Shown piece by piece: positions 13,392 through 33,635 of a stretch of DNA of 64,000 nt (position 1 is its first letter; every line of letters begins with the position of its first letter). The DNA is taken from positions 128,001 through 192,000 of the forward strand of contig CAVYBU010000008.1 of NCBI GenBank assembly GCA_963766735.1, read 5' to 3'. The DNA is from an uncultured Chloroflexia bacterium. GTDB taxonomy: Bacteria > Chloroflexota > Limnocylindria > Limnocylindrales > CSP1-4. Made by a program: the position numbers and the translations under genes. Below the pieces are notes generated by a model. That model saw only the letters and a program-made list of their open reading frames with translations, had not been told where the DNA came from and did not search any database.

Positions 13392-14981
13392 TCAGGGGCC
13401 GGGCGACGGCGGTGGCAGCGAAGGCGACGGCGGGGCCATCAGCGAACGCTCGAGCTCACGGTCCAGCCGGCGCTTGGTCAGCCACAGGTACGCAACCCCG
13501 AGCAGGATCAGCGCCAGGACGATCACCATCGCCGCGCGCCGGAAGTTCGTCTCATCGATCTTCGCGGTCGCGAGCGCCTTCGCGTCCCCGGCCTTGGTCA
13601 CGGCATCGGCGGACAGCTCGGCAATCGACGTGAGCTTGGTCGTGTGGACGGCCGCCTGGGCCTGGATCAGGCTCGTCTTGGCCCCGGCCAGCGCCACCTC
13701 GGCATCGGAGGTGATCATGCCCAGCCCCGCGGCATGCTGGATCTCGTCCTCCGCGTCCAGGTAGGCCTCCTCGGCGCTCGTGACCGCGTCCGAGATCCCC
13801 TCGATCTGCGAGTAGATCTGCGAATCCGGGTGGTGGCAGGTGTCGCACCGCCGGTTCTCCGGTTCCTGGAACTGGTCGAGCTCCAGGCGCAGCGTGTGGT
13901 TCTGCAGGTCATGGCACGTGACGCAGGCGTAGTCGGGCGGCGTGGGATGGAAGAAGAGCTCCGAACTCGGCTTGGTGACATCGTGGGTGCCGTGGCAGGT
14001 CCAGCACTTCGGGGCCACGGCCTGCAGCTCCGAGTGGCGGCTCTCCATGTACAGGTCCTGGGTCGCCGTGTGGCACTTGCCGCACACGTCGACCACGGTC
14101 GTCGACGTTGGCGGCTGGGCGTCGTGGGAGCCGTGGCAGCCCACGCAGGACGGTGCGCGAAGGTCCTTGTTGTCCAGGAGCGCGTGACCGTGAACGCTCT
14201 TGGAATAGACGTCGTACTGGTCGGTGGGGATCCCGTACGGCTCCATGCGCTTGGCGTCGGCGTGGCAGCTGGCGCACAGCTCCGGCACGTTGAGCGCAAA
14301 GGTCTTGGCCGTCGGGTCAGAGACCTTCTTGACGTCGTGCACCCCGTGGCAGTCGCTGCAGACGGCGACGCGAACGTCGTTGTTGACGATCAGCTGCTGG
14401 CCGTGGACGCTGGACCAGTACTTCGCGTACTGGTCGGTCGGCAGGCCGGACGCCTTCATCGTGTCGACGCTGGCGTGGCAGCTGCCGCACAGCCCCACCG
14501 TCCCCTGGCGGTCGGGCGCCCCCACGAAGCCGATCGCCGGGTCCATCGCCTTGGTGATCTGGTCCGATCCGGGATCGCCGCCGTGGCAGTCGGCGCAGGT
14601 CACGCCGCCCTGGCCATGGACGCTGTCCTGCCATTGGGCCGCGATATCCGCCTGCTTCGCGTTGACCGCGTTGTGGCAGTCGTAGCAGCCGTTCTCGCCC
14701 CCACCATCCGGGTGGGCGACCTGCGGCGGAACCGGCGGCGCGGTGGCAGGGGGGATCGTCGCCGTTGGAGCCGGCGTCGCGTACATCCACTCGGTGTCCG
14801 ACGGGCCGGGCGTCTGGGCGGCGGGCGCCGAAGCTGATGGGGACGGGGACCCCGCGGCGGCCGCCGACGGGCTCGGGCTCTCAGCGGAGGCCGAGAACGC
14901 GACCGCGAACCACGCGAGGCCGGCGAGGGCGAGCGTGCCGCCGAGCCGGACGAGCCGGCGCACCCTGGGCTGGTGGAGCAT
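13392..14981 (-). CDS. Membrane-anchored decaheme cytochrome c (partner of the Rieske/cytochrome b complex)
   Basis: Signal peptide, Ser/Pro-rich linker, 10 CxxCH motifs (CYDCH, CADCH, CGSCH, CSDCH, CASCH, CVGCH, CGKCH, CWTCH, CVTCH, CDTCH), a helical stalk and a C-terminal TM. Confidence 0.9.
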   Translation of the reverse strand: MLHQPRVRRLVRLGGTLALAGLAWFAVAFSASAESPSPSAAAAGSPSPSASAPAAQTPGPSDTEWMYATPAPTATIPPATAPPVPPQVAHPDGGGENGCYDCHNAVNAKQADIAAQWQDSVHGQGGVTCADCHGGDPGSDQITKAMDPAIGFVGAPDRQGTVGLCGSCHASVDTMKASGLPTDQYAKYWSSVHGQQLIVNNDVRVAVCSDCHGVHDVKKVSDPTAKTFALNVPELCASCHADAKRMEPYGIPTDQYDVYSKSVHGHALLDNKDLRAPSCVGCHGSHDAQPPTSTTVVDVCGKCHTATQDLYMESRHSELQAVAPKCWTCHGTHDVTKPSSELFFHPTPPDYACVTCHDLQNHTLRLELDQFQEPENRRCDTCHHPDSQIYSQIEGISDAVTSAEEAYLDAEDEIQHAAGLGMITSDAEVALAGAKTSLIQAQAAVHTTKLTSIAELSADAVTKAGDAKALATAKIDETNFRRAAMVIVLALILLGVAYLWLTKRRLDRELERSLMAPPSPSLPPPSPGP

Positions 14982-14998
14982 CGCTGTCCTCGGTCATC

Positions 14999-16079
14999 TC
15001 AGCTGACGTAGCCCCAGATCGTGAACACGATGAGGCCGACGATCACGAGGGTGGCTCCCGCGACGGCGATCTTGCGCCGGCGCATCACGACCTCCGGGTT
15101 CCGGTCCAGGAACGGCCAGATCACGAGCACCGCGACCCCGACGATGGGCACCATGATGCCGATCACCTTGATCGGGATGACCTTGAGCAGCTGGTAGACG
15201 CCGAGGTAGTACCACTCCGGCTTCGTGTGCTCCGGCGTCTGCAGCGGGTTCGCCTGCTCCTCCAGACCGGCCGGGAAGACCGAGGCGAGGACGACCAGGA
15301 TCGCCAGCAGGACGTACCAGGCCATCAGCTCGTCGATGATGTAGTGCGGGAAGAAGGGCCGCTGGGGCTCCTTCTCGATCTCGGGCGTCATGACGCGAGG
15401 CTCGGGGCGCTTGGGGTTCGCGAGGCCGAGCTGGTGCACGAGGATGAGGTGCACGGCGAGCAGCGCCACCAGGGCCAGCGGGCAGCACCAGGACGTGGAT
15501 CCCGAAGAAGCGGGTCATCGTGTCACCCGTGACATCCGCTCCGCCCCGGAGCAGCAGCAGCAGGGAGTCACCGATGAGCGGCACGCTGCCGGCGATCTCC
15601 GTGCCCACCACCGTCGCCCAGTAGGCGAGCTGGTCCCAGGGCAGCAGGTACCCGGTGAAGCCAAAGGCGAGCGTCACCATCAGGAGCAGCGAGCCGAAGA
15701 CCCAGGTGAGCTCGCGCGGGTACTTGTACGCGGCCTGCATGTAGACCCGCACCAGGTGCAGGACCACGAACAGGATCATCAGGTTGGCGGCCCAGTGGTG
15801 GACGGACCGGATCAGCCAGCCGAAGCTGACGTCGCTGGTGATGAACTTGACGCTCTCGTAGGCGGCTTCGGGCGTCGGCTTGTAGTACAGCGCCAGCAGG
15901 GTGCCGGTGGCCGCCTGGATGCCGAACAGGAACAGGGCGATGCCGCCGAAGTAGTACGTCTTCGCTGACATCGGGATGCGGACGTGCAGGCTGGCCCTGA
16001 TGACGGGACCGATCTTCGTCCGCTGGTCGAGCCAGCTGGTGGCCTTGCCGCCGGTGGGGGCCTTTGGGGTGGCCGCCAT
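14999..16079 (-). CDS. qcrB: Cytochrome b of a Rieske/cyt b (bc-type) complex, N- and C-domains in one gene; apparent +1 frameshift at about 15481
   Basis: GWLIRSVHHWAAN, LHLVRV, FTGYLLPWDQ and RFFGIHV; then PFFPH and KPEWY (Qo motif) in the next frame. Removing one C joins them (LPLALVALLAVH; 359 aa). Confidence 0.88.
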
Positions 16080-16080
16080 C

Positions 16081-16596
16081 TCAGGCCTCCGTCAGGTAGA
16101 TCTGGTCGCCCTCGACCGACACGGTGATCGGCGCCAGCGGTGCCGGCGGCGGGCCCGAGACGACCACGCCGGTCGCCGGGTTGAAGCGCCCGTCGTGGCA
16201 GGGACACTGGATGGCGCCGATCATGTCGTTCCAGGCGACGACACAGCCAAGGTGCGTGCAGATCGCGGAGAAGGCCTTCACGCCCTGGTCCGTGTTGACC
16301 ACGATCGCGGGCTTGCTCCCCATCGCGACGACCTTGCCGGCCCCGGCGGGGATATCCGCGGTCGTCCCGACCAGGACCTTGCCGCCGCCCGCGGAGGCGC
16401 CGTTCTTCGAGGGGATGAGAAACCCGATGACCGGGGTCAGGACCATGGCGGCCGTGGTCACGATGGTCAGGCCGCCCAGCCAGCGCAGGAAGCCTCGCCG
16501 CGTGGTCTGGCCGTCCGCCTCAGCCGGTGGACCACCACCCTCCGTGGCCGGACCACCACCCTCCGTGACCGATCCTGCGCGGGCCTCTGGTTCCAA
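16081..16596 (-). CDS. qcrA: Rieske iron-sulfur subunit (Tat-exported)
   Basis: TRRGFL Tat motif plus TM; CTHLGC and CPCHDG boxes; GPPPAPL. Start assigned to TTG 16596 after GGAGGG. Confidence 0.88.
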   Translation of the reverse strand: MEPEARAGSVTEGGGPATEGGGPPAEADGQTTRRGFLRWLGGLTIVTTAAMVLTPVIGFLIPSKNGASAGGGKVLVGTTADIPAGAGKVVAMGSKPAIVVNTDQGVKAFSAICTHLGCVVAWNDMIGAIQCPCHDGRFNPATGVVVSGPPPAPLAPITVSVEGDQIYLTEA

Positions 16597-16820
16597 TGCG
16601 CCCTCCGGGCGACGGGAGCACCAACCGCATGGTTGCAGCCCAATGGACGGATTGTGGGCGGTTGCACGGGCACAACAACCTATGGGTCGATATAGAAAAG
16701 GCACATTCCGGGTGACACATGGCCCGCCGCCGGAATGACCAGCGGCCCTGAGGCGCGCAGGCATCCCGCAGTCGCCGGTGCTCAGGCGCGCGCAGACGCC
16801 CGGCGCTCAGGCCCGGCGGG

Positions 16821-18575
16821 TCAGGATCTCGGGGTCAGTGGCCACGCGACACCAGTGGGAAGGTCCGGCAGCGTCGTGCCCTCCGTGCCTTCCTCGGCGC
16901 CTCCCTCCGTGCCGTGGAACGACGGCGACGTAACGGGCAGCACCGGATCCGCGTGGCAGCGGGCGCAGTACACGGGCTGGTGGCAGTAGGCGCACGCCGT
17001 GTTGCCCTGGTCGCGGATGACCTTGGCGTGGTTGGTCGACATCGTGTCGTGGTCCACGGTGACGGCGCCCGTGGCGTGGCAGTTGACGCAGTAGTCGCGG
17101 GCGTGGCACTCGCCGCACGAGTTTCCACCCGGGTCGATGTCGGTCGACACGTCCTTGTGGCTGAAGACCCACAGGTCATCGGCGTGCGTCGTCGGCGGCT
17201 CGCCGAGCGGCAGGCTGGCGACGGCCGGTCCGATCTGCGGGAACGTGTGGCAGGTGCTGCAGGCGGACGGGATGGTCTGCCTGGTGGCCACGCCATCCTT
17301 GACCAGGAAGTGGCCGCCGTCGTGGCAGCGGAAGCAGCCGGGGAAGTCCATGTGCCCCAGTTGGTTCGGGTACGTGCCGGGGGTGACGCTCATCTCCGGC
17401 GTCGACGACACGCGGTGGAGGGCCTTGATCTGCTCGATCGCATTGTCGATCTGGGCCGCCTTGGAGGCCGCGACGTCCGGGTAGTTGGCCGCGTAGAAGT
17501 TCTGCAGCTTGTCGATCTCGGCATCCGCCGTCGCGTCGTCCGGGTAGCCCGCCCACAGGAGCCGCATCCCTTCCCGTTTGATGTACGGGAGCGTGGAGTC
17601 GATATCGCCCTTGAACAGCTCGTAGTCCATGTCCGTGCGCGGGTTGGGGATGGCGTGCCCCGCCCGGTTGTGGCAGTCGTAGCACGTCATCAGGCTCATC
17701 GTCTCGGTTTCCAGGATCGCGTCGATGTCGGGCTGGACGTCCTCGGCAACGCTGATCTTGTCCTGGGCGATGAACTCCTGGGTCGATCCATCGCGACCCT
17801 CGGATACGACGTAGTCGATGGTGGCCTTGTGCTCGTCCGGCGAGGCGAACGTGAGCTCGCGGATGACATGCCAGTGCACGCCGCGCTCGGCATCGAGGGC
17901 ATCGCCGCCACCTGGGCGGATCATCAGCCCGACGAAGTTACGGGTGTTCGGCTCGTCCTCGAGGAACTGGGTGCTGGCCTTGAGGACCGCGAGGGCCTCC
18001 CGCTCAACGTCATGGCACTTGTCGCAGGTGTCGGACGCCTTGGGCAGGAGCGAGTGCTCGGGGGGCAGGATCGGCGTGGGGTAGGTGCCCAGGACGACGC
18101 TCACCAGCTGGCGGGTGCCGCTCATCTTGGCCTTGATCCAGCCGGCGATGCCCGGTTCCACGTGGCACTCGCCGCACGTGACCTCGGCGTGGGCGCCGGT
18201 CTTGTAGGCCTCGAGCTCGGGGTCCATGGTGTGGCAGCGTCCGCAGAAGTCGGCCGTCTCCGTCCAGTGGACCAGCGAGACGCCGGTGAACACGCCGACG
18301 AAGCCGAGCGCCCCCAGGATCAGCAGCAGGGCCAGCAACCCGCCCTTGGAGCTTGGGAGGTGGATCCGGCGGCCACGCAGGTAGAACGGGTTGCGGCGGC
18401 CACGCAGGTAGAACGGGTTGCGACGACGAGCCTTGGCGGGTTCAGAAACCCCCTCGGTCGCCACGGGCGCCTCCGCCCCCTTGGAAGGCCCGGCAACCGG
18501 CTCGTCACCGGCCCCCGGCGGCGTCACCCCCGCTTCGGCGGGCGGCAGGGCGTCGGGCGTCTCGGGGTCGCTCAT
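16821..18575 (-). CDS. NapC/NirT-domain multiheme cytochrome c, ImcH-like, 10 heme motifs
   Basis: N-terminal TM; WTETADFCGRCH, CGECH...AKMSG, CDKCH (NapC-like); GVHWHV, CYDCHNR, LPYIKR, GH...PGCFRCHDG, CSTCH; four more C-terminal CxxCH. Confidence 0.85.
   Translation of the reverse strand: MSDPETPDALPPAEAGVTPPGAGDEPVAGPSKGAEAPVATEGVSEPAKARRRNPFYLRGRRNPFYLRGRRIHLPSSKGGLLALLLILGALGFVGVFTGVSLVHWTETADFCGRCHTMDPELEAYKTGAHAEVTCGECHVEPGIAGWIKAKMSGTRQLVSVVLGTYPTPILPPEHSLLPKASDTCDKCHDVEREALAVLKASTQFLEDEPNTRNFVGLMIRPGGGDALDAERGVHWHVIRELTFASPDEHKATIDYVVSEGRDGSTQEFIAQDKISVAEDVQPDIDAILETETMSLMTCYDCHNRAGHAIPNPRTDMDYELFKGDIDSTLPYIKREGMRLLWAGYPDDATADAEIDKLQNFYAANYPDVAASKAAQIDNAIEQIKALHRVSSTPEMSVTPGTYPNQLGHMDFPGCFRCHDGGHFLVKDGVATRQTIPSACSTCHTFPQIGPAVASLPLGEPPTTHADDLWVFSHKDVSTDIDPGGNSCGECHARDYCVNCHATGAVTVDHDTMSTNHAKVIRDQGNTACAYCHQPVYCARCHADPVLPVTSPSFHGTEGGAEEGTEGTTLPDLPTGVAWPLTPRS
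18367..18420. repeat. Perfect 27-bp tandem duplication (RRNPFYLRG x2)
   Basis: cggcggccacgcaggtagaacgggttg repeated twice. Confidence 0.9.
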
Positions 18576-18582
18576 CGCGTCC

Positions 18583-19182
18583 TCAGTTCATCAGGGCCGC
18601 AACGGCGCGGTCCATCTCGTCCCTGGGGAGCGCACCGATCCGGACCTCCCGGACCTTCCCGTCAGGGCCGATGAAGAAGTGGGTCGGGATGCCCATCGAC
18701 CGGTAGGCCGCCGCAATGTCGGCATTCGGGTCCACCACGATGGGGAAGGTCAGCGCGGCCCTGCCGGCGTACCCGCTGACATCCTCGGCGGTCTCGTTGA
18801 TGAACACGCCCAGGACCACCAGGCCCTGGTCCTTGTTCGCGCGGTACGTGGCCTCCAGGTCCGCCGACTCGGTCCGGCAGTCGGGGCACCACGAGGCGCC
18901 GAACGTCAGCCAGACCGGCTTGCCGGCGTAGTCCGAGAGCGACACGGTCGTGCCGTCGTAGGTGACGCCGGTGAAGTCCGGCGGGACCGCGCCCACCACG
19001 GGGGCAGCGGCAGCCGCCCCCTCGCCCAGGTCGATCTGGGTCACGCCGTCCGATGGCCCCTGGCCGCTGGCCGCGTAGACGAGGACCCCGATCACGACGA
19101 CCGCGATCACGCCGATGCCGATCGTCTGCAGCCGGCCGGCCGTACGCCCGGAGGACCGGGCCGTGGTTCCCGCTGCGCTCAT
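18583..19182 (-). CDS. resA: ResA/TlpA-family membrane-anchored thiol-disulfide oxidoreductase
   Basis: N-terminal TM, ASWCPDC and GIPTHFFIGPDG; lies in the cytochrome c maturation operon. Confidence 0.85.
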   Translation of the reverse strand: MSAAGTTARSSGRTAGRLQTIGIGVIAVVVIGVLVYAASGQGPSDGVTQIDLGEGAAAAAPVVGAVPPDFTGVTYDGTTVSLSDYAGKPVWLTFGASWCPDCRTESADLEATYRANKDQGLVVLGVFINETAEDVSGYAGRAALTFPIVVDPNADIAAAYRSMGIPTHFFIGPDGKVREVRIGALPRDEMDRAVAALMN

Positions 19183-19211
19183 GGTGCCCTGACTCCCTTC
19201 GTGCCGTCGGC

Positions 19212-20123
19212 TCAGCCGAGGCCGGAGTAGCTGTGGAGCCCGCCGAAGAACAGGTTACCGAAGTAGGTGAACAGCGTGGCCGCGAAGCCGATCACGAGCA
19301 GCACTGCCGCCCGCTTGCCGCGCCAGCCGCGCATGACGCGGGCGTGGAGGTAGGCGCCGTAGATGAACCAGGTCACGAGCGACGCGGTCTCCTTGGGGTC
19401 CCAACTCCAGTAGCTGCCCCACGCCGTGTCTGCCCAGACTGCGCCGAGGACGATCGTCAGGGTGAGGAACGGGAAGCCGACGATGACCGCGCGGTACCCG
19501 ATGTCGTCCAGCACGTCCAGCCGCGGGAGGCCCCAGCCGCCGGGCTCGTCGCGGTTCGTGACCCAGGCGATGAACACCTGCAGCAGGTACAGGACCGACG
19601 CGGCGAAGGCGATGGTGAAGCTGCCGTAGGCGACGATTGCCACCGCGACGTGGACGGTCAGCAGGAGGTTGTTCTGCAGGGCCGGGACGAGCGGCGCGAT
19701 GTCGGCCGGAATGGTCCACGCGTAGAGCAGCATCGCGAGCGCGACCGGCATCGCGATCAGCGCGAGGATGCGCTGGTGATACCGGCGCTCGAACAGCATG
19801 TAGGCGAGCAGGATCCCGAACGCGAACGCCATCGAGAACTCGTACATGTTCGTGAACGGGCCGTAGCCGGTCGCGATGGTTCGGAACACGAGGCTGGCGA
19901 GGAGCGTGAACACTGCCAGCCAGCCCAGCATCGTGGCGTAGCGCCCGATGGCCGCCGTGCGGGGCCCGGAAGTGATGCCCACGGATCCGCTGGTCACGGG
20001 TGCACCGGCCGTCTGCATGCGGGCGGCCCGGAGTCCGGACACCGCGTACATCAGGTAGAAGATCGTGGCGAGCCCGGTGCTCAGCATCGCCGCGATGAAC
20101 ATGTACCCCGAGAGCTTTTCCAT
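19212..20123 (-). CDS. ccsA: System II cytochrome c synthase subunit ResC/CcsA
   Basis: WGSYWSWDPKET (WWD domain), PALQ, NMYE and C-terminal GLHSY. Confidence 0.92.
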   Translation of the reverse strand: MEKLSGYMFIAAMLSTGLATIFYLMYAVSGLRAARMQTAGAPVTSGSVGITSGPRTAAIGRYATMLGWLAVFTLLASLVFRTIATGYGPFTNMYEFSMAFAFGILLAYMLFERRYHQRILALIAMPVALAMLLYAWTIPADIAPLVPALQNNLLLTVHVAVAIVAYGSFTIAFAASVLYLLQVFIAWVTNRDEPGGWGLPRLDVLDDIGYRAVIVGFPFLTLTIVLGAVWADTAWGSYWSWDPKETASLVTWFIYGAYLHARVMRGWRGKRAAVLLVIGFAATLFTYFGNLFFGGLHSYSGLG

Positions 20124-20136: not shown

Positions 20137-21603
20137 TCAGCTCTGCGCCGGCGTCTGCAACGCCGCGCGAATGTCAGTGACCAGGTTCTCGAAATCGGTG
20201 GCCTGGGAAACGTCCTTGGTGGTCAGGGTGGCCATGCCGAGGACCGCGCCCCCGTTCGGGCGGGCGACGATGCGGCCCCAGACTCGCTTGTGGCGGATCA
20301 TAAAGCGGATCGAGAAGCCCCCGAACAGCAGGAGCGAGCCAATCCAGATGAACAGGACCCCGGGATCGCGGGCCACGTTGAGGCCGGTGAACTGGGTCTC
20401 GCGCTCGAAGGTGACCGTGAGATCACCCAGCTGGGTGGCCACGCCCTGGTCGATGATGCCGTCCGCGATCTGAGAACCCTCACCCGCGGTGTACAGCTCC
20501 GCCTGGATCTGGCCGGGCTTGATCATCCCGTCGCCGCTTCCCAGCGTGCCCACCAGCCAGATCACCTCGCCGGCGCCCGGGACGGTGAACGAGCCCACCG
20601 GCCGGTTGTCCGCGTTCGTCCGCCACGCGAGCGGCACGCCGCCCGAGTAGAGGATCTCGCCCGCGGCATCCTTGACCGTCATCACGGCCGCGGCCCCGAA
20701 GAAGGCCTGGTAGAAGGTGAGGTTTCCGTAGCGGTACGGATCGTTGACCCGCACGGTGTGGCGGTCGATCTCGGCCCCGTCCTTGAACACGACGATCTGG
20801 CTGGCGTAGTCGATCGGCGAACCCGTGACAGTGTCGTACTTGTCGGTGAAGTCGATCAGCTGGACGCTGAGGCCCGGTTCGGCGACCACGGGGAGCGTCT
20901 GCCCCTCGGCGACCGTGAACCCAGCGTCGCGATAGCCGAACATGCCGCCGATGATGGCGCCCGCCAGGATGACGACGATCGAGACGTGGGCGATCAGGCC
21001 CGCCCACGCTGCGTACCGGAAGCGGTCCCCGTAGAGGTGGATCGCGCCGTCGTCGGTCGAGAGGAAGCGGAAATGGCGGCCTCGCATGACGCTCTCCACG
21101 ATCGCCAGCGTCTCAGCGGGGGTATGCCGGACGACGATGGCCTCGTGCTGCGGGGCGTGCTCGAAGAACTGCGGCCCCACGTCCACGCGGGGCTTGGTGG
21201 TGGTCCGCCAGATTCCAGGGATCCGGTGGATCGAGCAGGCGATCAGGCTGATCGTCAGGCCCGCCACCAGGATCCGGAAGAGGATCGAGTTGAAGACCTC
21301 GAACATCTGGATGGTGTCCAGGAACCCGGTCCACCCGCCGTACTTGGGACGGATCTCATCCAGCCAGTTGGCCTTCGCGTCGGCACTGACCAGGACCCCG
21401 GGAGGCGCCTGGATGATGAGCGATCCGACGACGCCGAGCGCGGCGATGGCCAGCATGAGCACCATGGCCGTGCGCATGGACGAGAGGAAGTGCCACAGCC
21501 CTTCCAGCGCCCGGTCGACGCGATCCATGAACGAGGGCCCCGCCGCCGCGGCGGCCGGAGCGCCATTCGGCGGAAGCGGCCGGGTGTGGACCTCTTCGGT
21601 CAT
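20137..21603 (-). CDS. resB: System II cytochrome c biogenesis protein ResB/CcsB
   Basis: FLSSMRTAMVLM...GSLIIQ, IACS, H in the third TM, RVNDPYRY, FYQA and RDPG before the last TM. Confidence 0.88.
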   Translation of the reverse strand: MTEEVHTRPLPPNGAPAAAAAGPSFMDRVDRALEGLWHFLSSMRTAMVLMLAIAALGVVGSLIIQAPPGVLVSADAKANWLDEIRPKYGGWTGFLDTIQMFEVFNSILFRILVAGLTISLIACSIHRIPGIWRTTTKPRVDVGPQFFEHAPQHEAIVVRHTPAETLAIVESVMRGRHFRFLSTDDGAIHLYGDRFRYAAWAGLIAHVSIVVILAGAIIGGMFGYRDAGFTVAEGQTLPVVAEPGLSVQLIDFTDKYDTVTGSPIDYASQIVVFKDGAEIDRHTVRVNDPYRYGNLTFYQAFFGAAAVMTVKDAAGEILYSGGVPLAWRTNADNRPVGSFTVPGAGEVIWLVGTLGSGDGMIKPGQIQAELYTAGEGSQIADGIIDQGVATQLGDLTVTFERETQFTGLNVARDPGVLFIWIGSLLLFGGFSIRFMIRHKRVWGRIVARPNGGAVLGMATLTTKDVSQATDFENLVTDIRAALQTPAQS

Positions 21604-23821: not shown

Positions 23822-23849
23822 ACCCCCTGTACCGGTCGATACAGGGGGT
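23822..23849 (-). terminator. Probable intrinsic terminator after the octaheme cytochrome gene
   Basis: Perfect 10-bp stem ACCCCCTGTA-N8-TACAGGGGGT, about 30 nt past the stop at 23882, followed by TTCGATTCT on the minus strand. Confidence 0.6.
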
Positions 23850-23881
23850 GATTGGAGAGGCTCGGATGCGGGCGCAGAGGA

Positions 23882-26254: not shown

Positions 26255-26416
26255 GCTGGCGAGGTCTTCGTCATGGCGAGGGGTTGGACGTACACCCGTA
26301 GAGGCGGTTGACCCGATCGGTTCTCGGCATTGTGACGGACTGTGAGCTGCGCGGAGGAGACGTCAAGCGTCGGCTTTGGCGGCTCTTCGGCGAGGCCCGT
26401 GCCGGTGAGGGTTGCG

Positions 26417-26445
26417 GGTGGCCGGGACGATCGTCGCCGGCCACC
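26417..26445 (-). terminator. Stem-loop immediately downstream of the OmcS-like gene (terminator or mRNA stabiliser)
   Basis: ggtggccgg-gacgatcgtcg-ccggccacc inverted repeat 12 nt after the stop; no U-tract. Confidence 0.5.
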
Positions 26446-26457
26446 GCGCGCTGGTGG

Positions 26458-27673
26458 TTACGGAAGGTACGGGTTCGGGGTCGGTCCGACGAAGTCGCCG
26501 ACCACCATCGTCCCCGTGGGATCGTGACAAGCCTGGCACGTGCCGCGGTTGTCGATCTTCAGGAGGCGAGAGTCGCCCACCGGGGCAGCCGCGCCGCCCG
26601 GGAAGTCCATGTTGGCGGAGTTGTAGCCCGTCATCTGGGCGTTGGAACCGTGCGACACGTGGCACGTGATGCAGTTCCGGGTGGGGTTGAGGGACGTGTG
26701 CCGATACTTGAAGATCGCATCGGCTTCCTCCACATCCCACCCCTGGCTCAGGTAGCGGGAGTGGCACGTGGTGCACCAGTTGGCGATCTCCGTGGTGAAC
26801 GTCGAGGGCATGCCGTTGGGCGCGTCGTTGGACCCGCCGCTCGCGGCATCCCACGGGACGTAGCGCCGGAAGTAGTCACCAGCCGTTGATGACAGGCCGA
26901 GCCCAACAACCTGGCTCGCGTAGAGCGTTCCGGTGCCGCCGGCGGTCTGGATGATGGTGAAGTTGCGCGAGTCGTCGTTCCGGGAGCGGCGCGTCCTGGA
27001 CGACCACTCCTGCAGCCGCAGGCACAAATGCATCGGTGCCGATGGCGACCGGTGCGGGGATGGGGTTGAGGATTCGGTAGTTGCCGTTGCCGTGCGGGTT
27101 GTGGCAGGTGCCACATTCCATCTCGACTTCGGGTCCCGCGTACGCGGCGAGGTCGTTGGGGCCGTTGCCCCAGGCGACGCCGTCGGCCGGTCCCACCACG
27201 CCTGCCACGTTGGGCAGGTGGGCGGAGGTCACCGGCTGCGATCCGGCGGTCCGGACCGGCACCTTGGCTCGCTGGGAGACGTTTGACGTGCCTCTCGGAA
27301 CCGAGAGACGCGCAGCCTCACCCGACCCAATGCGGGCATTGACGAAGCCGCCACCTCGGAGATAGCCAAGAACGACGGAGCCACGGTATGTCGTGGTCCC
27401 GACGCGGTACTGGATGCCGCTCTCGACATCGATCTTGGAACCGAGGCCGGTGGCCCCGTGGCAGGACAGGCAGAGCGCAGTCCCCTCTTCGACGAGGAGG
27501 AACATGCCCTGCGCCGTGTGGGCGCGGTGGCAGCCAGCGCAGTTATCGGAGTTGATCCCGTTTACGCCGCTGTTGTTCGCAGCCACATGTGGTCCACTGT
27601 CTGCGAAGACGGGGACCGCGGCAAGGAACAGCCAAAGACTTCCGGCTGCAATCAGCAACATCAGCCTTCTCAA
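26458..27673 (-). CDS. OmcS/CwcA-family hexaheme cytochrome c (candidate cytochrome nanowire subunit); apparent frameshift at about 26980
   Basis: TTG start after AAAGGAGGTGA; Sec signal ending VFA|DSGPH. Joined frames give CAGCHRAH...LL...CLSCH...GGGF...SAH...CGTCHNPHG..NYRIL...NWCTTCH...YRH...CITCHVSHGS...NRGTCQACH (about 404 aa), the motif order I recall for OmcS. Confidence 0.8.
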
Positions 27674-27777
27674 ACTGTCCTCACCTCCTTTCTCTGTGCT
27701 ACGTGGGCTTGACATTGGCCGCCACGATTGGCGGCGGCGCAGAACTCCGGTATCCACCTCCCTTTGCTGGTTCGGGT

Positions 27778-28848
27778 TCAGTAGCTCCACAACTGCACAC
27801 GGTTGTTGGCGGAGTCGGCGATGTACAGCCGGCCTCGTGCATCGACCGTGATGCCGTTGGGGTAGGCGAAGGCTCCGTCGCCCGAGCCCTGGCTCCCGAA
27901 GCTGCCCAGGTACTCGAGTCGCGACGACCCTTCTTGGTAGCGTCCGAAGACGAAGACGGTGTGACCGGTCGAGTCAGCGACGTAGACCCGACCCTGTCCG
28001 TCCAGGGCCACCCCTCGCGGCAGGCCAAGGTTCCCCTCGCCGGCTCCCCGTCCAACACGGGCGACGATGGCCCCATCCTGACCGTAGACCAGCAGGCGGC
28101 CGTTGTTGCTGTCGGTCACGTACGCGTAGCCGGCATCGTCGATGGCCACGCCGTTGGGAAAGTCGAGGTCATCGTTCTCGCCGAAGATGCGGACCTGCGC
28201 GCCGGATGGATCGAACACCCGCACCCGGCCCGGGACGTCGCCGACGTCGGTGACGTACAGGTTGCCCGCCGCATCGAACGCGAGCCCCAGCGGCTGCCAG
28301 CCCGGGGCGTCCGCTGGCGGGGAAAACGCCCGCAGATAGGCGCCCTGGGTGTCGTAGATGTAGATCGATGCCGTCTGACGGTCCGAGACATAGATCTCGC
28401 CCGTGAGCGGGTTGAGCGCGAGGTAGGTCGGCACGTGGTCGGTGCCCGTGGAACTCGGCGGCAACATGGCCTGCACCTCGTTGCCACCGGTGTCGTAGAT
28501 GCCCGCCGTCTGGTCCCCGGCGGTCTCGCCGATGTAGATCCGCTCGCCGTCAGGCGTCACGGCGACGCTCATCGGACGTGAGGCGCCGTAGATCGACGTC
28601 GTGTACGTGGGCATGATCGTCTCGCCCGGGATCGTCGGGACGGGGATCGGCTGGCGGAACAGCAGGTACCAGATCGCGAGGCCGAGCAGCGCCAGGAAGG
28701 CCAGCAGCAGCATCAGCAGCAGCAGCAGCCGGCGGCGCCGGCGGTTGTCCTCCTCCTCGAGGACGTCCTCCGGAGGGGCCGTGTCGCCCGGTGATGCCGC
28801 CGCGCCTGTCGGGGGGATGGCATCCACGTCGTCGCCGGGAGCGGTCAT
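27778..28848 (-). CDS. NHL-repeat six-bladed beta-propeller protein with N-terminal membrane anchor
   Basis: Repeated PxGvAvD motifs (PLGLAFD, PNGVAID, PRGVALD, PNGITVD) with YVxDS. Confidence 0.9.
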   Translation of the reverse strand: MTAPGDDVDAIPPTGAAASPGDTAPPEDVLEEEDNRRRRRLLLLLMLLLAFLALLGLAIWYLLFRQPIPVPTIPGETIMPTYTTSIYGASRPMSVAVTPDGERIYIGETAGDQTAGIYDTGGNEVQAMLPPSSTGTDHVPTYLALNPLTGEIYVSDRQTASIYIYDTQGAYLRAFSPPADAPGWQPLGLAFDAAGNLYVTDVGDVPGRVRVFDPSGAQVRIFGENDDLDFPNGVAIDDAGYAYVTDSNNGRLLVYGQDGAIVARVGRGAGEGNLGLPRGVALDGQGRVYVADSTGHTVFVFGRYQEGSSRLEYLGSFGSQGSGDGAFAYPNGITVDARGRLYIADSANNRVQLWSY

Positions 28849-29906
28849 CAGTTGCTCCCTTCGGCGCTGGGTGACGGCATGACATCCGGGTGAGCCTGTG
28901 TGCCGTCACTCACGCGGCTCAGCCCGAGCTGCGCGGCCTGGCTCTCGGCGTCCAGCTCGAGGGCCTTCCGGTACCAGACCGCGGCCGTTGCCGGGTCGCC
29001 GCTCGCCTCGGCCAGCAGCCCCAGCCCGATCCGGGCATCGACCCCAGCATCACCGTCCGCGATGGCCTCGAGGCGGGCAACCGAGTCGGCCGGGGCGGAG
29101 GACTCACCGGCCGCGAGTACCGCCATCGCGGTGGCCATGGCGTCCGCCCACTCGGCCTCCCCCGCGTCGCCCGTCGCCGTGTAGGCGTCGGCCAGCGACC
29201 GGTACGGATCCGGCCAGCGCGTGGGCACGAACAGGATGGCCTTCCGCAGGGGTTCGAACGCCTCCTCCGGCTTGCCGGCCTTCACGTACGCGGCGCCGAG
29301 AAGGTTCATCGCGTCCGCGTCGGTGCGCTTGATCGCCAGGGCCCTGAGGAGGTTGTCCACGGCGTCGTCCGGCCGGTCCTGCTGCAGCGCGATCTCGCCG
29401 AGCCCGTAGTAGGCGGTCTGAAGCATCGGGTCCACGTTGGCCTGCTCGGTGTCCCTGGCGATCTCGACGACCTTCGCGAAGTCGGCCGCCGCCGCGTCGG
29501 CGTCGCCGGTCTTCTGGAACGCGAGGCCGCGGCTGATGTAGGCGGCCTCGTCCCGCTTCCCGGTCCTGATGATCTCCGAGTACTGCGCAATCGCATCCTC
29601 GTACCGACCTGCCGTGAAGTACAGGTCTCCGAGCCGGCCCCGTGACGCGATGTCGGTTGGGTCCGTGCGGACAGCCTCCTCGACCACCGCCATCTCGCGG
29701 TTCACGATCGAGGGCGCCGGCGCGCGGAATCTGTCAACGGCGTAGAAGGCGACGAAGGCGACGATACCGACGAACAGCAGCAGCGCGAGCCGCTTGATCC
29801 AGCGGTTCAGCTGCGCCTCGGGCATCGAGGTCAGGGACGTGACCCGGGACATGAATGGCACCTGTACTCCTTGGCCGGCGGAATCAGGGAGACCGACCTG
29901 CGTCAA
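28848..29906 (-). CDS. Membrane-anchored TPR protein
   Basis: Single TM followed by multiple TPR motifs (RLGDLYFTAGRYEDAIAQY, AYYGLGEIALQQ, AMNLLGAAYVKAG). Confidence 0.85.
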   Translation of the reverse strand: MTQVGLPDSAGQGVQVPFMSRVTSLTSMPEAQLNRWIKRLALLLFVGIVAFVAFYAVDRFRAPAPSIVNREMAVVEEAVRTDPTDIASRGRLGDLYFTAGRYEDAIAQYSEIIRTGKRDEAAYISRGLAFQKTGDADAAAADFAKVVEIARDTEQANVDPMLQTAYYGLGEIALQQDRPDDAVDNLLRALAIKRTDADAMNLLGAAYVKAGKPEEAFEPLRKAILFVPTRWPDPYRSLADAYTATGDAGEAEWADAMATAMAVLAAGESSAPADSVARLEAIADGDAGVDARIGLGLLAEASGDPATAAVWYRKALELDAESQAAQLGLSRVSDGTQAHPDVMPSPSAEGSN

Positions 29907-30081: not shown

Positions 30082-30600
30082 TCAGGCCGGCAGCAATTCC
30101 TTGGGCGTGTCGAAGTTGCCGGGCACGTCCACCTCGATGACGTCGCCGGTGATCCGGATCGGGAACTGCCGGAGGGGCGTGGTGGGCTTGCCGGAGATCA
30201 CGCTTCCGTCCAGGGCGAACTGGCCGTCGTGGCAGTGGCAGGAGAACTGCCCGACGTCCGGGAGCCAGCCGTAGGAGCACAGCCCGTGGGTGCAGCGCGG
30301 GTCGTAGGCGATGATCTCCCCGGAGGACTTCTTCACCAGCCACACGGAGGCGGCCGTCGGCCTGCCGCCCAGGTCCACGGTGAACTCGACCTCCGTGGGG
30401 GTGCCCGGGACGAGGTCGTCCGGGTCGGTGTCCAGCTCCACGGGGACGGGCGGCCCGGCGCAGCCGGCGAGGATGCTGCCCAGGCTGCCCGCCGCCAGCG
30501 CGCCGACGCCGATGAGCAGCAGGACACGACGCCTTGGGACCGGCGTGGTGCGTGGATCGAAGGCCGGTGCGGTCTGCGGCCGGCGGAGGTCGTCGCCCAT
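30082..30600 (-). CDS. Second Rieske [2Fe-2S] protein (Tat-like lipoprotein)
   Basis: RRRVLL, LAGC lipobox, CTHGLC and CHCHDGQF; start ATG 30600. Confidence 0.8.
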   Translation of the reverse strand: MGDDLRRPQTAPAFDPRTTPVPRRRVLLLIGVGALAAGSLGSILAGCAGPPVPVELDTDPDDLVPGTPTEVEFTVDLGGRPTAASVWLVKKSSGEIIAYDPRCTHGLCSYGWLPDVGQFSCHCHDGQFALDGSVISGKPTTPLRQFPIRITGDVIEVDVPGNFDTPKELLPA

Positions 30601-30613
30601 AACGGGCGACAGA

Positions 30614-31024
30614 CTAGCCCGGAATCGGCGAGGGCTGCAGGCTGGGGTCCGCGTCGGCGGCAGGTGCGGGCTTGCCGGCGGCACCGACCACCGCGCGGAT
30701 CGCGGCCAGGAAGTCGTCCGGGCGGGTGGACAGGGTCTCGCGGCGAAGGGTCCAGGCGCGGGTGGTGGTGATGTCCACGTCCAGCACCACGGGGCAGTCG
30801 GACCGGCGGACGACATCTGCGGCATCAACCGCGCCGCCCTCCTCCACCACGATCACGTCCGGGTCCAGGGCGATGGCGGCATCAACCGCCTCCGTGATGC
30901 CGATGTCCACGGCATCCACGGCCACCCCGGGCTCGGCGGCGAGCATCTTCAGCAGCCCCTCCCCCATCAGGGGATGGCTGTACAGGAGAAGCACGCGCAC
31001 CGGATCTGGCGACACGATGGGCAT
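30614..31024 (-). CDS. Stand-alone degenerate receiver-like domain protein
   Basis: VRVLLLYSHPLMGEGL...DPDVIVVE follows the NarL-type receiver pattern, but the acidic pair and phospho-Asp are not conserved. Confidence 0.6.
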   Translation of the reverse strand: MPIVSPDPVRVLLLYSHPLMGEGLLKMLAAEPGVAVDAVDIGITEAVDAAIALDPDVIVVEEGGAVDAADVVRRSDCPVVLDVDITTTRAWTLRRETLSTRPDDFLAAIRAVVGAAGKPAPAADADPSLQPSPIPG

Positions 31025-31174: not shown

Positions 31175-31867
31175 TCAATCCCGGTTCGGCTCCTGGTTCG
31201 CGTAGCCCTGCCGAACCGCGTAGGCGGCCGCCTGCACCCGGTTGGTGAGGTGGAGCTTCTCCAGGGCGTTGTGGACGTGGTTCTTGACCGTGCCCTCGGT
31301 GATCGTCAGCTCGTTGGCGATCTCCTTGTTGGACATCCCCGCGGCGACCAGCTGGAGGATCTCCGACTCGCGGCGGGTCAGGACGGTGGGCTGGGGTGCT
31401 GCCGCGGCCTGGCCGCGCGTGGGGATCCCGCCGGTGCGCAGGGCCTCCAGCAGCCGGGTGGCCACCGCGGGGGCGATGGGCGCCTCGCCGCGCATCACGC
31501 CGCGCATGTCCTCGAACAGCTGCTCTGGGCGGACGTTCTTGAGCAGGTAGCCGTTGGCGCCGGCCTTGATCGACTCGAACAGGTCGTCGTCGTCCTCGGA
31601 CACCGTGAGCATGACGATGGGCGTCTTGATCCCGGCAGCACGGATGGCCGCAACGCCGTCAACGCCCGAGGCGACAGGCATGTTCACGTCCATGATCACG
31701 AGATCGGGATGGAGCGCGCGGACCTTCTCCAGGGCGTCGCGACCGTTCTCACCCTCGCCCACGACCGTCATGTCGAACTGGGCGCTGATCAGGGTCGCGA
31801 GCGCCCTGCGGAACAGGGGCTGGTCATCGACGAGCAGCACCCGGAGCTTCGGAGGAAGGTGTTCCAC
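31175..31867 (-). CDS. NarL/FixJ family response regulator (REC + LuxR HTH)
   Basis: VLLVDD, PDLVIMDVNMP, GANGYLLK, LTRRESEIL...GMSNKEIA...TVKNH. Confidence 0.92.
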   Translation of the reverse strand: MEHLPPKLRVLLVDDQPLFRRALATLISAQFDMTVVGEGENGRDALEKVRALHPDLVIMDVNMPVASGVDGVAAIRAAGIKTPIVMLTVSEDDDDLFESIKAGANGYLLKNVRPEQLFEDMRGVMRGEAPIAPAVATRLLEALRTGGIPTRGQAAAAPQPTVLTRRESEILQLVAAGMSNKEIANELTITEGTVKNHVHNALEKLHLTNRVQAAAYAVRQGYANQEPNRD

Positions 31868-33635
31868 GCATGTCCTCTGGGTCGAGCTGGACGACGATCG
31901 TCGTCCCGTGTTGCGGGGCAGTCTGCACATCGATGCTGCCACCGATCTGCTCGACCCGCTCGCGCATGGACTTCAGGCCGAAGCCGCCTTCCATGGAGCT
32001 GGCGATGGTCGAAGGGTCGAAGCCTACGCCATCGTCCTCGATCGTGAGCGTGGCGCCGGCGCCGAGGCAGTCGATCCGAATGCTGACGCGGTGCGCCTGC
32101 GAGTGCTTGCGCGTGTTGGTGAGCGCCTCCTGGACCACGCGCAGCAGCTGGACCTCTGACCGCGGCGTCAGGGCGCGGCGGGTGTCGCCCTCGCAGGTGA
32201 GCGTGGCGACGATGCCCGTCTGGCGGCTGTACTTGCGCAGGTATTCGCGGAGCGAGCCCTCAAGGCCGTCATCCTCGCGAACGGTCTCGCGCAGACCCAG
32301 GATGGCCTCACGGACGTCGCGGTAGGCCTCGTCAGCGGTCTCCGCGATGGCGGACAGCTCGTCCGCGATGCCGAGGCTCGCCTCGTCCTTGGCCCGGGCC
32401 TCAAGCGACCTGAGCTGGAGGTGGATCACGCCCAGGACCTGGGCGAGGCTGTCGTGAAGCTCCCGGGCGATGCGGTCGCGTTCGGCGTGGATCGTCCACT
32501 GCTCCTCGGCCTCGTGGAGGCGCGCGGTGCGGACGGCGATCGAGGCCATGTCCGCGAGGGCACCCAGGAGGCTGCGCTCCTGGGCCGTGAATGGGGCGCC
32601 TGGACGGACCACGCACAGCTCGCCCAGCGTTCCGTCGGGCCCGCGCATCGGACGGGCGGCCCAGGTGTCCGCCTCGTTCATGACCGGGAGCGGACAGAGC
32701 GGGTTCCGCGGGTGCTGGGCGGAGGCATCCTCGTGGGCGAGGAAGCAGACGCTGCCGTCGTCGGACATCGCCAGGCGCTCGCGGCTGGTGGCGGTGCGCG
32801 CGACGGTGTCGCGGACCTCGCTGAGGCAGACCACGGCCCGCTCCGCCCCGAGGAGGTCCCGGGCGTGGGAGGTGATGGTGTCGAGGGTGTCGCGCAGGTC
32901 GTTGCGGCTGGTCAGCTGGAGGGCGACGGCGTACAGAGCCTCTCGCTCCAGCTCGCGGCGGTGGAGGTCCGCGACGGTGATGCCCAGCTGGGCGGCGCCG
33001 GCGATCTCGCCCGCGATGTCCGCGAGGGCAGCCTCAGAGACATCCGGCTCCACGGGCGGGTGGAACGCGAGCCGGACATGGCCGATGCGATCGGTGCCGC
33101 GGATGAGCGGGAGGTCCAGGACGCCGGTGTCCACCCCCGGACGCTGGCTGTAGCGCGGGGCGTCCACGGCCGGGTCCAGGGGCTCGGCCAGAATGGAGCC
33201 GACCCAGGTGAGGCCTTGTGGGAGCGTGGCGGGGCGCTGGATCACGAGCGGACGGCCGTCGGTGCCGCGGACGGTGATGCTGCCCGCCAGGGCGCCGGTC
33301 TGGGTGGCGAGACGGTCCAGCGACTGTTCCAGGAGGTCGGGCAGAGAGTGGCCGCCCCGGACGGCGGAGCTGACCGCGTGGGTGACCGTGAGGTCCTTGT
33401 TCTGCGCGACCAGCTGCTTCTGCGCCCGGTCGAGGTAGATGGACACGATGGTGGCGAACACGACGATCGCCCCGCCCATGATCATCGCGGAGGCGACGTG
33501 GCTGGAGTCGTTGCTGGACGTGGGGTCCAGGACCAGGAAGCGGCCGAGCTCGAACAGCCAGACGAAGACGATCGGCAGGATCATCGTCGCCCACTTGAGG
33601 CGGTTGAGGTCGCGGGTGCCCAGGGGATCGCTCAT
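31824..33635 (-). CDS. NarX-like sensor histidine kinase (2 TM, GAF-like domains, HisKA_3, HATPase_c)
   Basis: ERDRIARELHDSLAQ, QEALTNTRKH, IEDDGVGF and GFGLKSMRER. Confidence 0.9.
   Translation of the reverse strand: MSDPLGTRDLNRLKWATMILPIVFVWLFELGRFLVLDPTSSNDSSHVASAMIMGGAIVVFATIVSIYLDRAQKQLVAQNKDLTVTHAVSSAVRGGHSLPDLLEQSLDRLATQTGALAGSITVRGTDGRPLVIQRPATLPQGLTWVGSILAEPLDPAVDAPRYSQRPGVDTGVLDLPLIRGTDRIGHVRLAFHPPVEPDVSEAALADIAGEIAGAAQLGITVADLHRRELEREALYAVALQLTSRNDLRDTLDTITSHARDLLGAERAVVCLSEVRDTVARTATSRERLAMSDDGSVCFLAHEDASAQHPRNPLCPLPVMNEADTWAARPMRGPDGTLGELCVVRPGAPFTAQERSLLGALADMASIAVRTARLHEAEEQWTIHAERDRIARELHDSLAQVLGVIHLQLRSLEARAKDEASLGIADELSAIAETADEAYRDVREAILGLRETVREDDGLEGSLREYLRKYSRQTGIVATLTCEGDTRRALTPRSEVQLLRVVQEALTNTRKHSQAHRVSIRIDCLGAGATLTIEDDGVGFDPSTIASSMEGGFGLKSMRERVEQIGGSIDVQTAPQHGTTIVVQLDPEDMRGTPSSEAPGAARR

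Follow-up and report, generated by a model that had tools for sequence, protein, structure and literature searches.

Most of what is understood of extracellular electron transfer concerns diderm Proteobacteria, Desulfuromonadia and a few Bacillota. The subject of the present analysis is a block of 17 genes, all on the minus strand at positions 13392-33671 of a stretch of 64,000 nucleotides (the window, whose G+C content is 70%) from the genome of an uncultured bacterium of the Limnocylindria, a class of Chloroflexota common in soils, aquifers and sediments. Judging from its gene content, this locus fairly probably encodes an accessory respiratory module that links the membrane quinol pool to extracellular redox partners via a multihaem relay, with an outward flow of electrons being favoured; the role of the locus as an electron conduit, taken by itself, is a well-supported prediction.

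Among the described systems, the first to be compared is that of Geobacter sulfurreducens, whose OmcS (PDB 6EF8/6NEF) shares with the hexahaem cytochrome of the present locus a size of ~400 residues, secretion, the presence of six CXXCH motifs and the form CxGCHxxH of the first of them. In the available text of the reports on Geobacter, omcS is followed immediately by the NHL-repeat gene GSU2505, which has been linked to the assembly or the expression of OmcS (PMC9070056), an NHL-repeat gene being the neighbour of the cytochrome gene in both organisms, and omcS is placed in an “omcS companion” (osc) operon together with its paralogues omcT and oscC and with proposed folding/secretion factors (PMC13194489); tandem paralogues are found in the present family as well, at least two hexahaem copies standing side by side in 29 of the 73 related loci considered below. 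On the other hand, the similarity between OmcS and the hexahaem protein emerges only with a broad profile and over approximately one-third of the length, the present host lacks an outer membrane, so that the outer-membrane secretion step of Geobacter is not required, and the NHL and tetratricopeptide repeat (TPR) proteins are here anchored in the cytoplasmic membrane, in a locus that also encodes a System II maturation set and quinol-oxidising modules of its own. NHL propellers are also described as accompanying surface cytochromes in Desulfovibrio ferrophilus (PMC5815863).

For single-membrane cells the closest functional parallel would seem to be the ImdcA-PdcA-CwcA-OcwA chain of Thermincola potens and T. 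ferriacetica, likened to the present locus by description and not by sequence. The part of the source that describes this chain presents the same single-membrane logic, namely a membrane decahaem, a wall hexahaem proposed to stack and a surface multihaem cytochrome, and reports that CwcA was modelled on OmcS at 18% identity (PMC7911101). The present locus differs in that NHL, TPR and maturation genes, a Rieske lipoprotein, a Rieske/cytochrome b/decahaem module and a two-component system are added in one operon-like block, and in belonging to another phylum. A Bacillota cluster of “doubled CXXCH” proteins is also found among the ESM Atlas feature look-alikes (0.93-0.94), this being a generic match and a lead only.

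A third design is the uet cluster of “Ca. Tenderia electrophaga” (Tenderiales), for which the available text reports multihaem cytochromes, two NHL proteins, a dedicated CcsAB and an NrfG-like TPR protein (bioRxiv 10.1101/2022.05.06.490989). Common to uet and the present locus are NHL proteins, a dedicated CcsAB beside the main maturation system and a TPR protein, whereas the UetC beta-barrel, the UetB peptidyl-prolyl isomerase (PPIase), the UetF cupredoxin, trihaem c7 proteins and an undecahaem are reported as features of uet, which is assigned to electron uptake; a Pfam scan of the present locus found no barrel, PPIase or cupredoxin domain. Conversely, the available description of uet names neither an NrfH-type nor a Rieske/cytochrome b module, both of which are present here.

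The conduits of the MtrCAB, PioAB/MtoAB and Pcc types perform the same task, that is the crossing of the envelope via close-packed haems, and the paired CXXCH motifs of the present locus resemble those of MtrA; in contrast to these conduits, the present locus lacks a porin gene, and searches of the genome and of the sample of its class gave no Omp85. With the NrfH/NapC/CymA/ImcH-type quinol oxidoreductases the locus shares an N-terminal transmembrane (TM) helix followed by an NrfH-like haem module, with ten haems instead of four to seven, and with the bc/b6f operons the order Rieske, cytochrome b, c-type subunit with a C-terminal anchor, again with ten haems instead of one or two. A further difference is that both entry modules are held in one locus, the Rieske/cytochrome b module being mobile or unlinked in relatives. 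No description of such a cluster in this lineage was found in the literature covered, which was mostly open-access, preprint supplements lying outside its scope. The cluster would belong to a known kind, that of multihaem envelope conduits with an OmcS-like element, and its interest lies in the lineage, in a cell that lacks an outer membrane and in how compact the operon is.

Reading frames were chosen by third-position G+C and conservation, domains were called by a Pfam scan supplemented by NCBIfam, and TM helices by a hydropathy scan; in this way all 17 open reading frames (ORFs) could be assigned. An earlier reading of the same DNA made without database searches (the sequence-only reading) had described 17 co-oriented genes, 34 haem motifs and no beta-barrel gene. 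Every gene is indeed found on the minus strand in the order then given, none of the 17 ORFs is a beta-barrel, and the count of 34 is reached with 33 CXXCH (10+10+7+3+3) and a single CX3CH of the octahaem cytochrome, a motif that is invariant in a 35-sequence alignment (A2). The boundary then placed at 33635 corresponds to the second Met of the histidine kinase ORF, which extends to 33671.

The hexahaem cytochrome (26458-27715, minus strand) is read in the window as 3+3 CXXCH in two frames with a break near 26979; its intact orthologue P0001 has 406 amino acids, a cleavable signal peptide and six CXXCH, so that secretion, a length of ~400 residues and six haem motifs, as in proteins of the OmcS type, are all found. 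The family is large: a search of 1.84 billion cluster representatives matched 1687 clusters at E<=1e-3, and 362 clusters still when the threshold was set at E<=1e-30. When a broad alignment made from diverse members (A3, 24% mean column identity) was compared with the solved structures, the top match was OmcS (6ef8_A, also 6nef) with an E of 2.7e-6 and 30 bits, profile positions 153-278 being aligned with OmcS residues 109-249, from the third to the fourth haem motif. This similarity may be taken as modest but real evidence of a distant relationship. Furthermore, the CxGCHxxH of OmcS residues 9-16 recurs in the haem-1 motif of the hexahaem family, in which the +3 histidine is nearly invariant, six conserved non-motif histidines are available for the six haems, and one of these histidines, H29, five residues past the predicted signal cleavage site, is invariant in A3. 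His16 of OmcS is presumably the residue that ligates haem 5 across the subunit boundary. In the available text of the source on the Thermincola chain, a histidine supplied by another subunit is given as ligand of haem 5 in OmcS (PMC7911101).

Two copies of the mature orthologue were modelled together and gave values of the interface score ipSAE of 0.37, 0.46 and 0.58, with a median of 0.46 that passes the mark taken as support for binding, the best of three controls reaching 0.00; the predicted local distance difference test (pLDDT) of the partner is at least 90 and the runs share at least 94% of the contacts. The modelled interface is asymmetric and head to tail, residues 308-398 (the region of haems 4-6) of one copy facing residues 28-60 and 195-197 (the haem-1 region) of the other, with residues 51/52 of the second copy touching 339, 323 and 326 of the first, beside the haem-5 motif. 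In the model this is the geometry that an open polymer needs and it matches the inter-subunit contact of the OmcS type, which makes polymerisation of the hexahaem plausible.

The following observations weigh against a polymer. No OmcS match was obtained in PDB sequence searches with the hexahaem halves, with the octahaem or with a narrow profile of 42 orthologues (A1, E<=10), the only solved likeness of the single hexahaem sequences and of A1 being a paired-CXXCH resemblance to MtrA, and no OmcS-named Pfam or NCBIfam family was matched by the hexahaem. The match of the broad profile is partial, covering about one-third of its length with a modest 30 bits, and is followed by those to MtrA (2.6e-5) and OmcE (7.5e-5), scores of this kind being inflated by motif-rich cytochromes. 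The two-copy model included 4 of the 12 haems and used a custom alignment, conditions under which the ipSAE mark, reached in calibration by 20 of 30 solved homo-pairs but also by 1 of 23 single chains, is only roughly valid; finally, the model may reproduce a memorised OmcS filament. A conduit in which the hexahaem acts as a monomeric wall-embedded or shuttle cytochrome, and in which decahaem, hexahaem and octahaem form a hetero-complex on the NHL and TPR scaffolds, is thus a serious contender to which we assign somewhat less than an even chance. To the weakness of the OmcS similarity this alternative can add the divergent paralogues, of which many loci have two or three and which could be successive elements of a relay. 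Against it speak the modelled interface, which sets the region of the CxGCHxxH histidine against the haem-5 motif of the partner, and the six conserved distal histidines for six haems; as to the paralogues, omcS too is reported to have tandem ones, omcT and oscC (PMC13194489). The term “cytochrome nanowire” of the sequence-only reading is thus partly supported, by a partial profile match and a head-to-tail dimer model.

The hexahaem gene is followed by that of the octahaem cytochrome (23882-26254, minus strand), which consists of an N-terminal signal/anchor helix, a stalk, a middle domain and a C-terminal domain holding 7 CXXCH and the CX3CH. The stalk, of ~100 residues, is made of Pro/Thr/Ser/Glu-rich repeats encoded by two tandem arrays at 25833-26134, and the middle domain has no match in the Pfam scan; matches of the octahaem to circumsporozoite protein were rejected as low-complexity repeats originating from the stalk. 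On the other side of the hexahaem lie the gene of a membrane-anchored NHL-repeat beta-propeller (27778-28848, minus strand; PF01436, 105.9 bits, one TM helix, most of the protein lying outside) and that of a membrane-anchored TPR protein (28848-29906, minus strand) having one N-terminal TM helix, its TPR domain outside and a weak CcmH/CycH TPR likeness; each of these two is present in all 44 of the related loci with full flanks.

Two modules would allow electrons to enter. The first is the membrane-anchored NapC/NrfH-type decahaem (16821-18575, minus strand), a protein of 584 residues with a cytoplasmic N-terminus, a TM helix at 81-99, an NrfH-type module and then six further haems. Its residues 76-202 match residues 6-134 of NrfH (2j7a_C) with an E of 3.2e-9 in the PDB sequence search, PF03264 passes its cut-off of 24.1 with 42.1 bits, and the first haem motif is CXXCHxM, as at haem 1 of NrfH; the N-terminal TM helix followed by the multihaem module that characterise the NapC/NirT/NrfH family are thus both found. 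Since the NCBIfam equivalogs NrfH, NapC and TorC all remain below their cut-offs, the protein would be a new long member of the family and not a subunit of those enzymes. NrfH-type modules are known to oxidise quinol, and the decahaem can be described, on its predicted architecture, as a quinol dehydrogenase extended into a wire. A side observation in this gene is a perfect tandem duplication of 27 nt (2.1 copies, 18367-18422), present also in the related locus L069, which encodes a nine-residue Arg-rich peptide in the cytoplasmic N-terminus.

The second module comprises Rieske protein 2 (16081-16764), cytochrome b (14999-16079) and a decahaem with a C-terminal anchor (13392-14981), all on the minus strand. 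Rieske 2 has a PF00355 match, b6f Rieske NCBIfam matches below cut-off and a PetC-type TM anchor (PF25471) that is weak (19.9 bits, cut-off 37.1), the true start being probably internal to the called ORF. Cytochrome b consists of a b6-like part (PF00033, 173 bits) and of a subunit-IV-like part which, the gene being split near 15483, sits in a second frame, and the decahaem, whose 529 residues include a signal peptide, a helical stalk and, for anchorage in the manner of cytochromes c1 and f, a TM helix at the C-terminus, occupies the operon position of cytochrome c1/f. The features expected of bc1/b6f-type genes are accordingly found in the three products, one of which is frameshifted in the assembly, and the module is best described, at the level of prediction, as a bc-type operon with a ten-haem c subunit.

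All four parts of System II are in the cluster, namely CcdA (approximately 21618-22419; PF02683), ResB/CcsB (20137-21603; PF05140, 225 bits), ResC/CcsA (19212-20123; PF01578) and the ResA-type membrane-anchored thioredoxin (18583-19182; Pfam AhpC-TSA/Redoxin and a TM helix), again on the minus strand. Three of these score above the cut-offs (PF05140, PF01578, AhpC-TSA/Redoxin), and CcdA reaches 25.9 bits, slightly below the cut-off of 27.1, because the gene is split over two frames with a break near 21996-22007. Second copies of CcdA, ResA, ResB, ResC and cytochrome b are found elsewhere in the source genome, the second ResC on contig C30, whereas no paralogue of the hexahaem, of the octahaem, of either decahaem or of the NHL protein was found there; from the duplication of the maturation genes it follows that the set in the cluster is an extra, dedicated one. 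Next to CcdA is encoded a bitopic TPR protein (22407-23624, minus strand; 41 of 44 full-flank loci) with a cytoplasmic N-domain, a TM helix at 193-211 and an outer TPR domain with weak CcmH/CycH-TPR likeness, which is probably an apocytochrome chaperone; the “J-like” domain formerly attributed to it was not recovered, no DnaJ match being obtained in Pfam at E<=0.01.

Regulation is represented by a sensor histidine kinase (31824-33671), which displays two N-terminal TM helices by hydropathy and GAF, HisKA_3 and HATPase_c domains by Pfam, and by a NarL/LuxR-type response regulator (31175-31942) with REC and GerE helix-turn-helix domains in Pfam, both on the minus strand and both present in 43 of 44 full-flank loci. 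The claims of the sequence-only reading that the cluster has a maturation set and a regulation of its own are both borne out, the former by the second gene copies elsewhere in the genome and the latter by this pair. A pseudo-receiver (30614-31024, minus strand), with a receiver-like fold, no Pfam match and weak NarL/NarP N-terminal matches, was likewise rightly named, inasmuch as a BLASTP alignment with the neighbouring regulator shows YS where the acidic pair DD would stand and Glu at the place of the phospho-acceptor Asp. Between this gene and that of the first TPR protein lies Rieske [2Fe-2S] protein 1 (30082-30606, minus strand; PF00355), whose twin-arginine-like leader and lipobox-like LAGC indicate that it is probably exported and lipid-anchored.

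From these parts the following path can be proposed. Electrons would leave menaquinol at the NrfH-type decahaem and, in those genomes that carry the module, at a second entry represented by the Rieske/cytochrome b complex, with the C-terminally anchored decahaem as its c subunit, which could conserve energy when the potential of the acceptor allows. The hexahaem would stack head to tail, the +3 histidine of CxGCHxxH reaching haem 5 of the next subunit so as to yield a haem wire through the wall, and the octahaem on its Pro/Thr stalk would provide the distal contact to the outside. The NHL and TPR proteins would serve as scaffold or as assembly factors for the cytochromes, the TPR protein encoded next to CcdA would act as a chaperone of the apocytochromes, and the Rieske 1 lipoprotein, the role of which is the least clear, may bridge or tune the path. 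When O2 is scarce, the electrons would be disposed of to Fe(III) or Mn(IV) minerals, to humics or to partner cells.

A chain of this composition could also act on a soluble substrate outside the cytoplasm, for example nitrite, hydroxylamine, selenite/tellurite or sulfite, with one of its large cytochromes as the catalytic reductase or oxidase, and two matches point in that direction: the best NCBIfam match of cytochrome b is ExtP of a “selenite/tellurite reduction operon” (223.6 bits), and a short stretch of the anchored decahaem, 56 residues, is locally similar to NrfA with an E of 1.2e-3. The former lies, however, below its cut-off of 290 and is similar to that of a plain cytochrome b6 model (221.7 bits); none of the four cytochromes matches a catalytic family of the NrfA, HAO, OTR or MccA type in Pfam or NCBIfam, the sole NrfA-type solved match of the octahaem profile, cytochrome c-552, has a non-significant E of 1.9, the CXXCK motif was not seen in the translations, and the conserved histidines would be numerous enough for the haems of the hexahaem and of the octahaem to be bis-His ligated. 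We consider this possibility improbable; that the cytochromes do not group with catalytic terminal reductases, as the conduit reading presupposes, is in keeping with the lack of a family match and with PDB matches that are short or non-significant.

As to the envelope that has to be crossed, profile searches for Omp85 (PF01103) and LpxC (PF03331), in which the expected control genomes were positive, found neither in the source genome, which is 93.85% complete, and a sample of 81 genomes of the class, which included 73 of high quality, likewise gave no Omp85. Within the reach of these profile searches, a porin-based conduit is excluded, and the single-membrane host presumed by the sequence-only reading has been upheld. 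On the other hand, the suggestion of an “Actinomycetota-like” host has to be abandoned, the homologues and related contigs carrying Chloroflexota/Limnocylindria source names. The respiratory set of the source genome includes one haem-copper oxidase (COX1) and one bd oxidase, and no RuBisCO match was obtained in this genome, other carbon-fixation pathways not having been searched for; the gene content suggests a facultative heterotroph that would need an electron sink without O2. DNA near-identical to the locus is present in 20 of the 21 runs listed; the runs belong to 10 metagenomic studies, of sediment, aquatic, marine-sediment and estuary samples.

Because of the haem-copper and bd oxidases, the lack of a RuBisCO match and the mostly sediment-type metagenomes, an outward flow is favoured, and by a clear margin, over uptake. 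The opposite direction, in which electrons from Fe(II), Mn(II), reduced humics, cathodes or partner cells would reach the oxidases and, via a reversed Rieske/cytochrome b complex, the quinone pool, is considered unlikely. It finds some support in the same two oxidases, which are available to accept electrons, in the Rieske centres, which are comparatively high-potential carriers, and in the title “Mn-Chloroflexi” of one related metagenome-assembled genome (MAG), L068, which is a name only. The NrfH-type modules, known as oxidisers of quinol, argue against uptake, as does the lack of an indication of lithoautotrophy, within the limit of the RuBisCO search just mentioned, and the provenance from mostly sediment metagenomes fits anoxic electron disposal at least as well. 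A further point in favour of uptake is that the nearest cluster design in the literature, uet, belongs in the available description to electron-uptake autotrophs (bioRxiv 10.1101/2022.05.06.490989).

The conservation of the locus was followed in two ways. In the same genus, the full order of 17 genes is found in 4 of 5 genomes over the 28 kb compared, the fifth lacking Rieske 2, cytochrome b and the anchored decahaem, and 20 of 24 genomes carry the NapC-type decahaem, which is absent from all 16 genomes of a sister family with small genomes. At larger distance, a scan of species-representative genomes with the hexahaem alignment yielded 174 relatives, from which 73 loci, nearly all titled Chloroflexi, Chloroflexota or Limnocylindrales, were kept, 44 of them with full flanks of 10 kb. 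The core set, defined as kinase, regulator, pseudo-receiver, TPR, NHL, hexahaem, octahaem, second TPR, ResB, ResC, ResA and NapC-type decahaem, is present in 39 of these 44. The recurrence of the gene order in the same-genus genomes and in the 73 related loci means that the arrangement is not due to chance, and a conserved synteny in relatives, on which the earlier interpretation depended, is thereby provided.

The position of the Rieske 2/cytochrome b/decahaem module is, in contrast to that of the core set, variable: it stands at the 3′ end in the window and in loci L091 and L092, upstream of the kinase in L060, L062 and L078, and between regulator and pseudo-receiver in L057, L058 and L083, and it is missing in L021, L023, L033, L040 and L089, where FdhD comes right after the NapC-type gene. 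Among 201 genomes of the class, taken as one sample, the hexahaem profile is found in 16, the anchored decahaem in 12 and both in 11, so that the anchored decahaem occurs in 11 of 16 hexahaem-positive but in 1 of 185 hexahaem-negative genomes, the two lying on different contigs in three genomes; this co-occurrence is to be read as a pattern and not as a statistic, related genomes not being independent. By family, the carriers number 13 of 60 (f1), 2 of 66 (f4), 0 of 66 (f3) and 0 of 7 (f2). The “self-contained whole path” of the sequence-only reading is accordingly correct as a parts list but overstated as a description of the family, the module being missing or elsewhere in many relatives.

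Another type of variation is displayed by locus L069, whose DNA is 92-95% identical to the window on two sides, one running from the kinase into the TPR gene, of which the first two-thirds are included, and the other from the second TPR gene to the NapC-type decahaem. Over window positions 23845-29178 there is no nucleotide match, and the place is taken by a different version, of 7 kb, of the TPR C-terminus, the NHL gene, hexahaems and the octahaem (L069:6825-13864); the hexahaem of this version is nearest (65-66% amino-acid identity) to loci whose core genes are only ~50% identical to those of the window. A different cassette between near-identical flanks implies that the surface-exposed part moves as a unit, which in turn argues that the products of the TPR C-terminus, NHL, hexahaem and octahaem sequences work together and that the exposed part is under pressures other than those acting on the membrane part. 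L069 also possesses, between response regulator and pseudo-receiver, an extra ORF of 168 codons (L069:3925-4428) and an additional ~1 kb, neither of which is present in the window.

Several data have to be set against the reading of the locus as an outward conduit operating in this organism. The sequence alone does not fix the direction of the flow. The hexahaem is patchy in the class (16 of 201 genomes), and the Rieske/cytochrome b/decahaem module is optional and mobile and can be dispensed with in some relatives. A sediment RNA library contains contigs near-identical to the NapC-type decahaem (1 difference in 227 letters), to CcdA (2 in 246) and to the octahaem (1 in 259), which hints at expression, carry-over of DNA being possible. 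Three genes, finally, are spread over two frames each in the assembly, namely cytochrome b near 15483, CcdA at 21996-22007 and the hexahaem at 26979, and at the first of these sites the X3 contigs (depth 13.3) are without the deletion seen in an X4 contig.

The last two observations would also fit a locus that is decaying in the source genome, with three real frameshifts and a conduit that is not made; three breaks fall within 20 kb, the X3 contigs at 15483 keep the extra base, and homopolymer slippage does not account for two of the breaks, which are differences of 2 nt. A decay of this kind seems very improbable. The halves of all three split genes are open and their frames match those of relatives at 70-90% amino-acid identity, and in the related loci a single frame is the rule (hexahaem, 58 of 59; CcdA, 43 of 46; cytochrome b, 7 of 8). 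The break in cytochrome b consists of one extra C in a C-run, three of three relatives being one base shorter at this place, while those in CcdA (as aligned to L069) and in the hexahaem consist of two missing bases each, in variable linkers. Furthermore, when contigs of four public runs were placed on the locus at 90% likeness, a threshold at which the cytochrome b genes of other organisms also align, one independent short-read contig restored the frame at each site, with -1 at 15483 (X4), -10 in all at 21996-22007 (X3) and +2 at 26979 (X4). Scattered split genes of the same sort occur in several related MAGs, and the three frameshifts are probably errors of the assembly.

In the same comparison, one X4 short-read contig has an extra C at 16707, in the N-terminal and poorly protein-like part of the Rieske 2 ORF, which probably reflects a true start of the gene downstream or a fourth small assembly indel. 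The stretch 28641-29307 encodes the Leu-rich TM helix of the NHL protein; a depth peak over this stretch (866 and 1316 in two runs) was rejected as a signal, a Leu-rich CTG/CAG-repeat sequence attracting unrelated DNA at 90% likeness.

Outside the borders of the cluster, a minus-strand ORF of 380 amino acids (12178-13320), seemingly conserved in tblastn, was considered as an 18th gene and discarded as the shadow of a plus-strand FdhD. On the upstream side a NuoE/F-like flavoprotein is encoded, along with the N-terminal part of a subunit of the formate-dehydrogenase type; neighbours of this kind stand beside the cluster in 18 (NuoEF) and 21 (FdhA-N) of the 44 full-flank loci and, because they are absent from the more distant loci, they were not counted as parts of it. 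The formate-dehydrogenase-type subunit (33866-35152, minus strand) ends after its Fe-S domains, ~200 nt before the kinase, where relatives have a further 1.1-1.4 kb, and a separate molybdopterin ORF (42133-43794, minus strand), 7 kb away, begins at profile position 99; the two may represent a truncated or rearranged formate dehydrogenase gene. The window also encodes a formamidase and an AmiS/UreI transporter (36991-39089) and, on the plus strand, two adjacent MttB-family (trimethylamine methyltransferase-like) ORFs (44204-45724 and 45318-47168), each spanning approximately the whole profile. Further multihaem ORFs of the source genome lie outside the cluster, at C17:2716-5079 (L098), C2:159066-159902, C25:87356-88102 and C25:90330-91082, one of them being a protein of 788 amino acids with 27 CXXCH in c7/c3-type repeats.

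In its most complete form the proposal is that of an OmcS-type polymer in a cell without outer membrane, raised on an NHL/TPR platform, ending in an octahaem tip, fed by two alternative quinol-oxidising entries and exchanged in its surface part as one cassette; it is offered as a tentative picture, rather doubtful as a whole. Were it true, the NrfH-type and Rieske/cytochrome b entries would be fitted to acceptors that differ in potential, cytochrome nanowires would have to be regarded as ancient and as extending beyond Geobacter to an abundant phylum of soils and sediments, and the minimal machinery for the assembly of such a polymer could be read from one operon. The compact operon offers a testable model of how single-membrane bacteria are wired to minerals and of the accessory proteins that a cytochrome polymer needs, and the Chloroflexota would join the candidate drivers of the redox cycling of Fe, Mn and humics.

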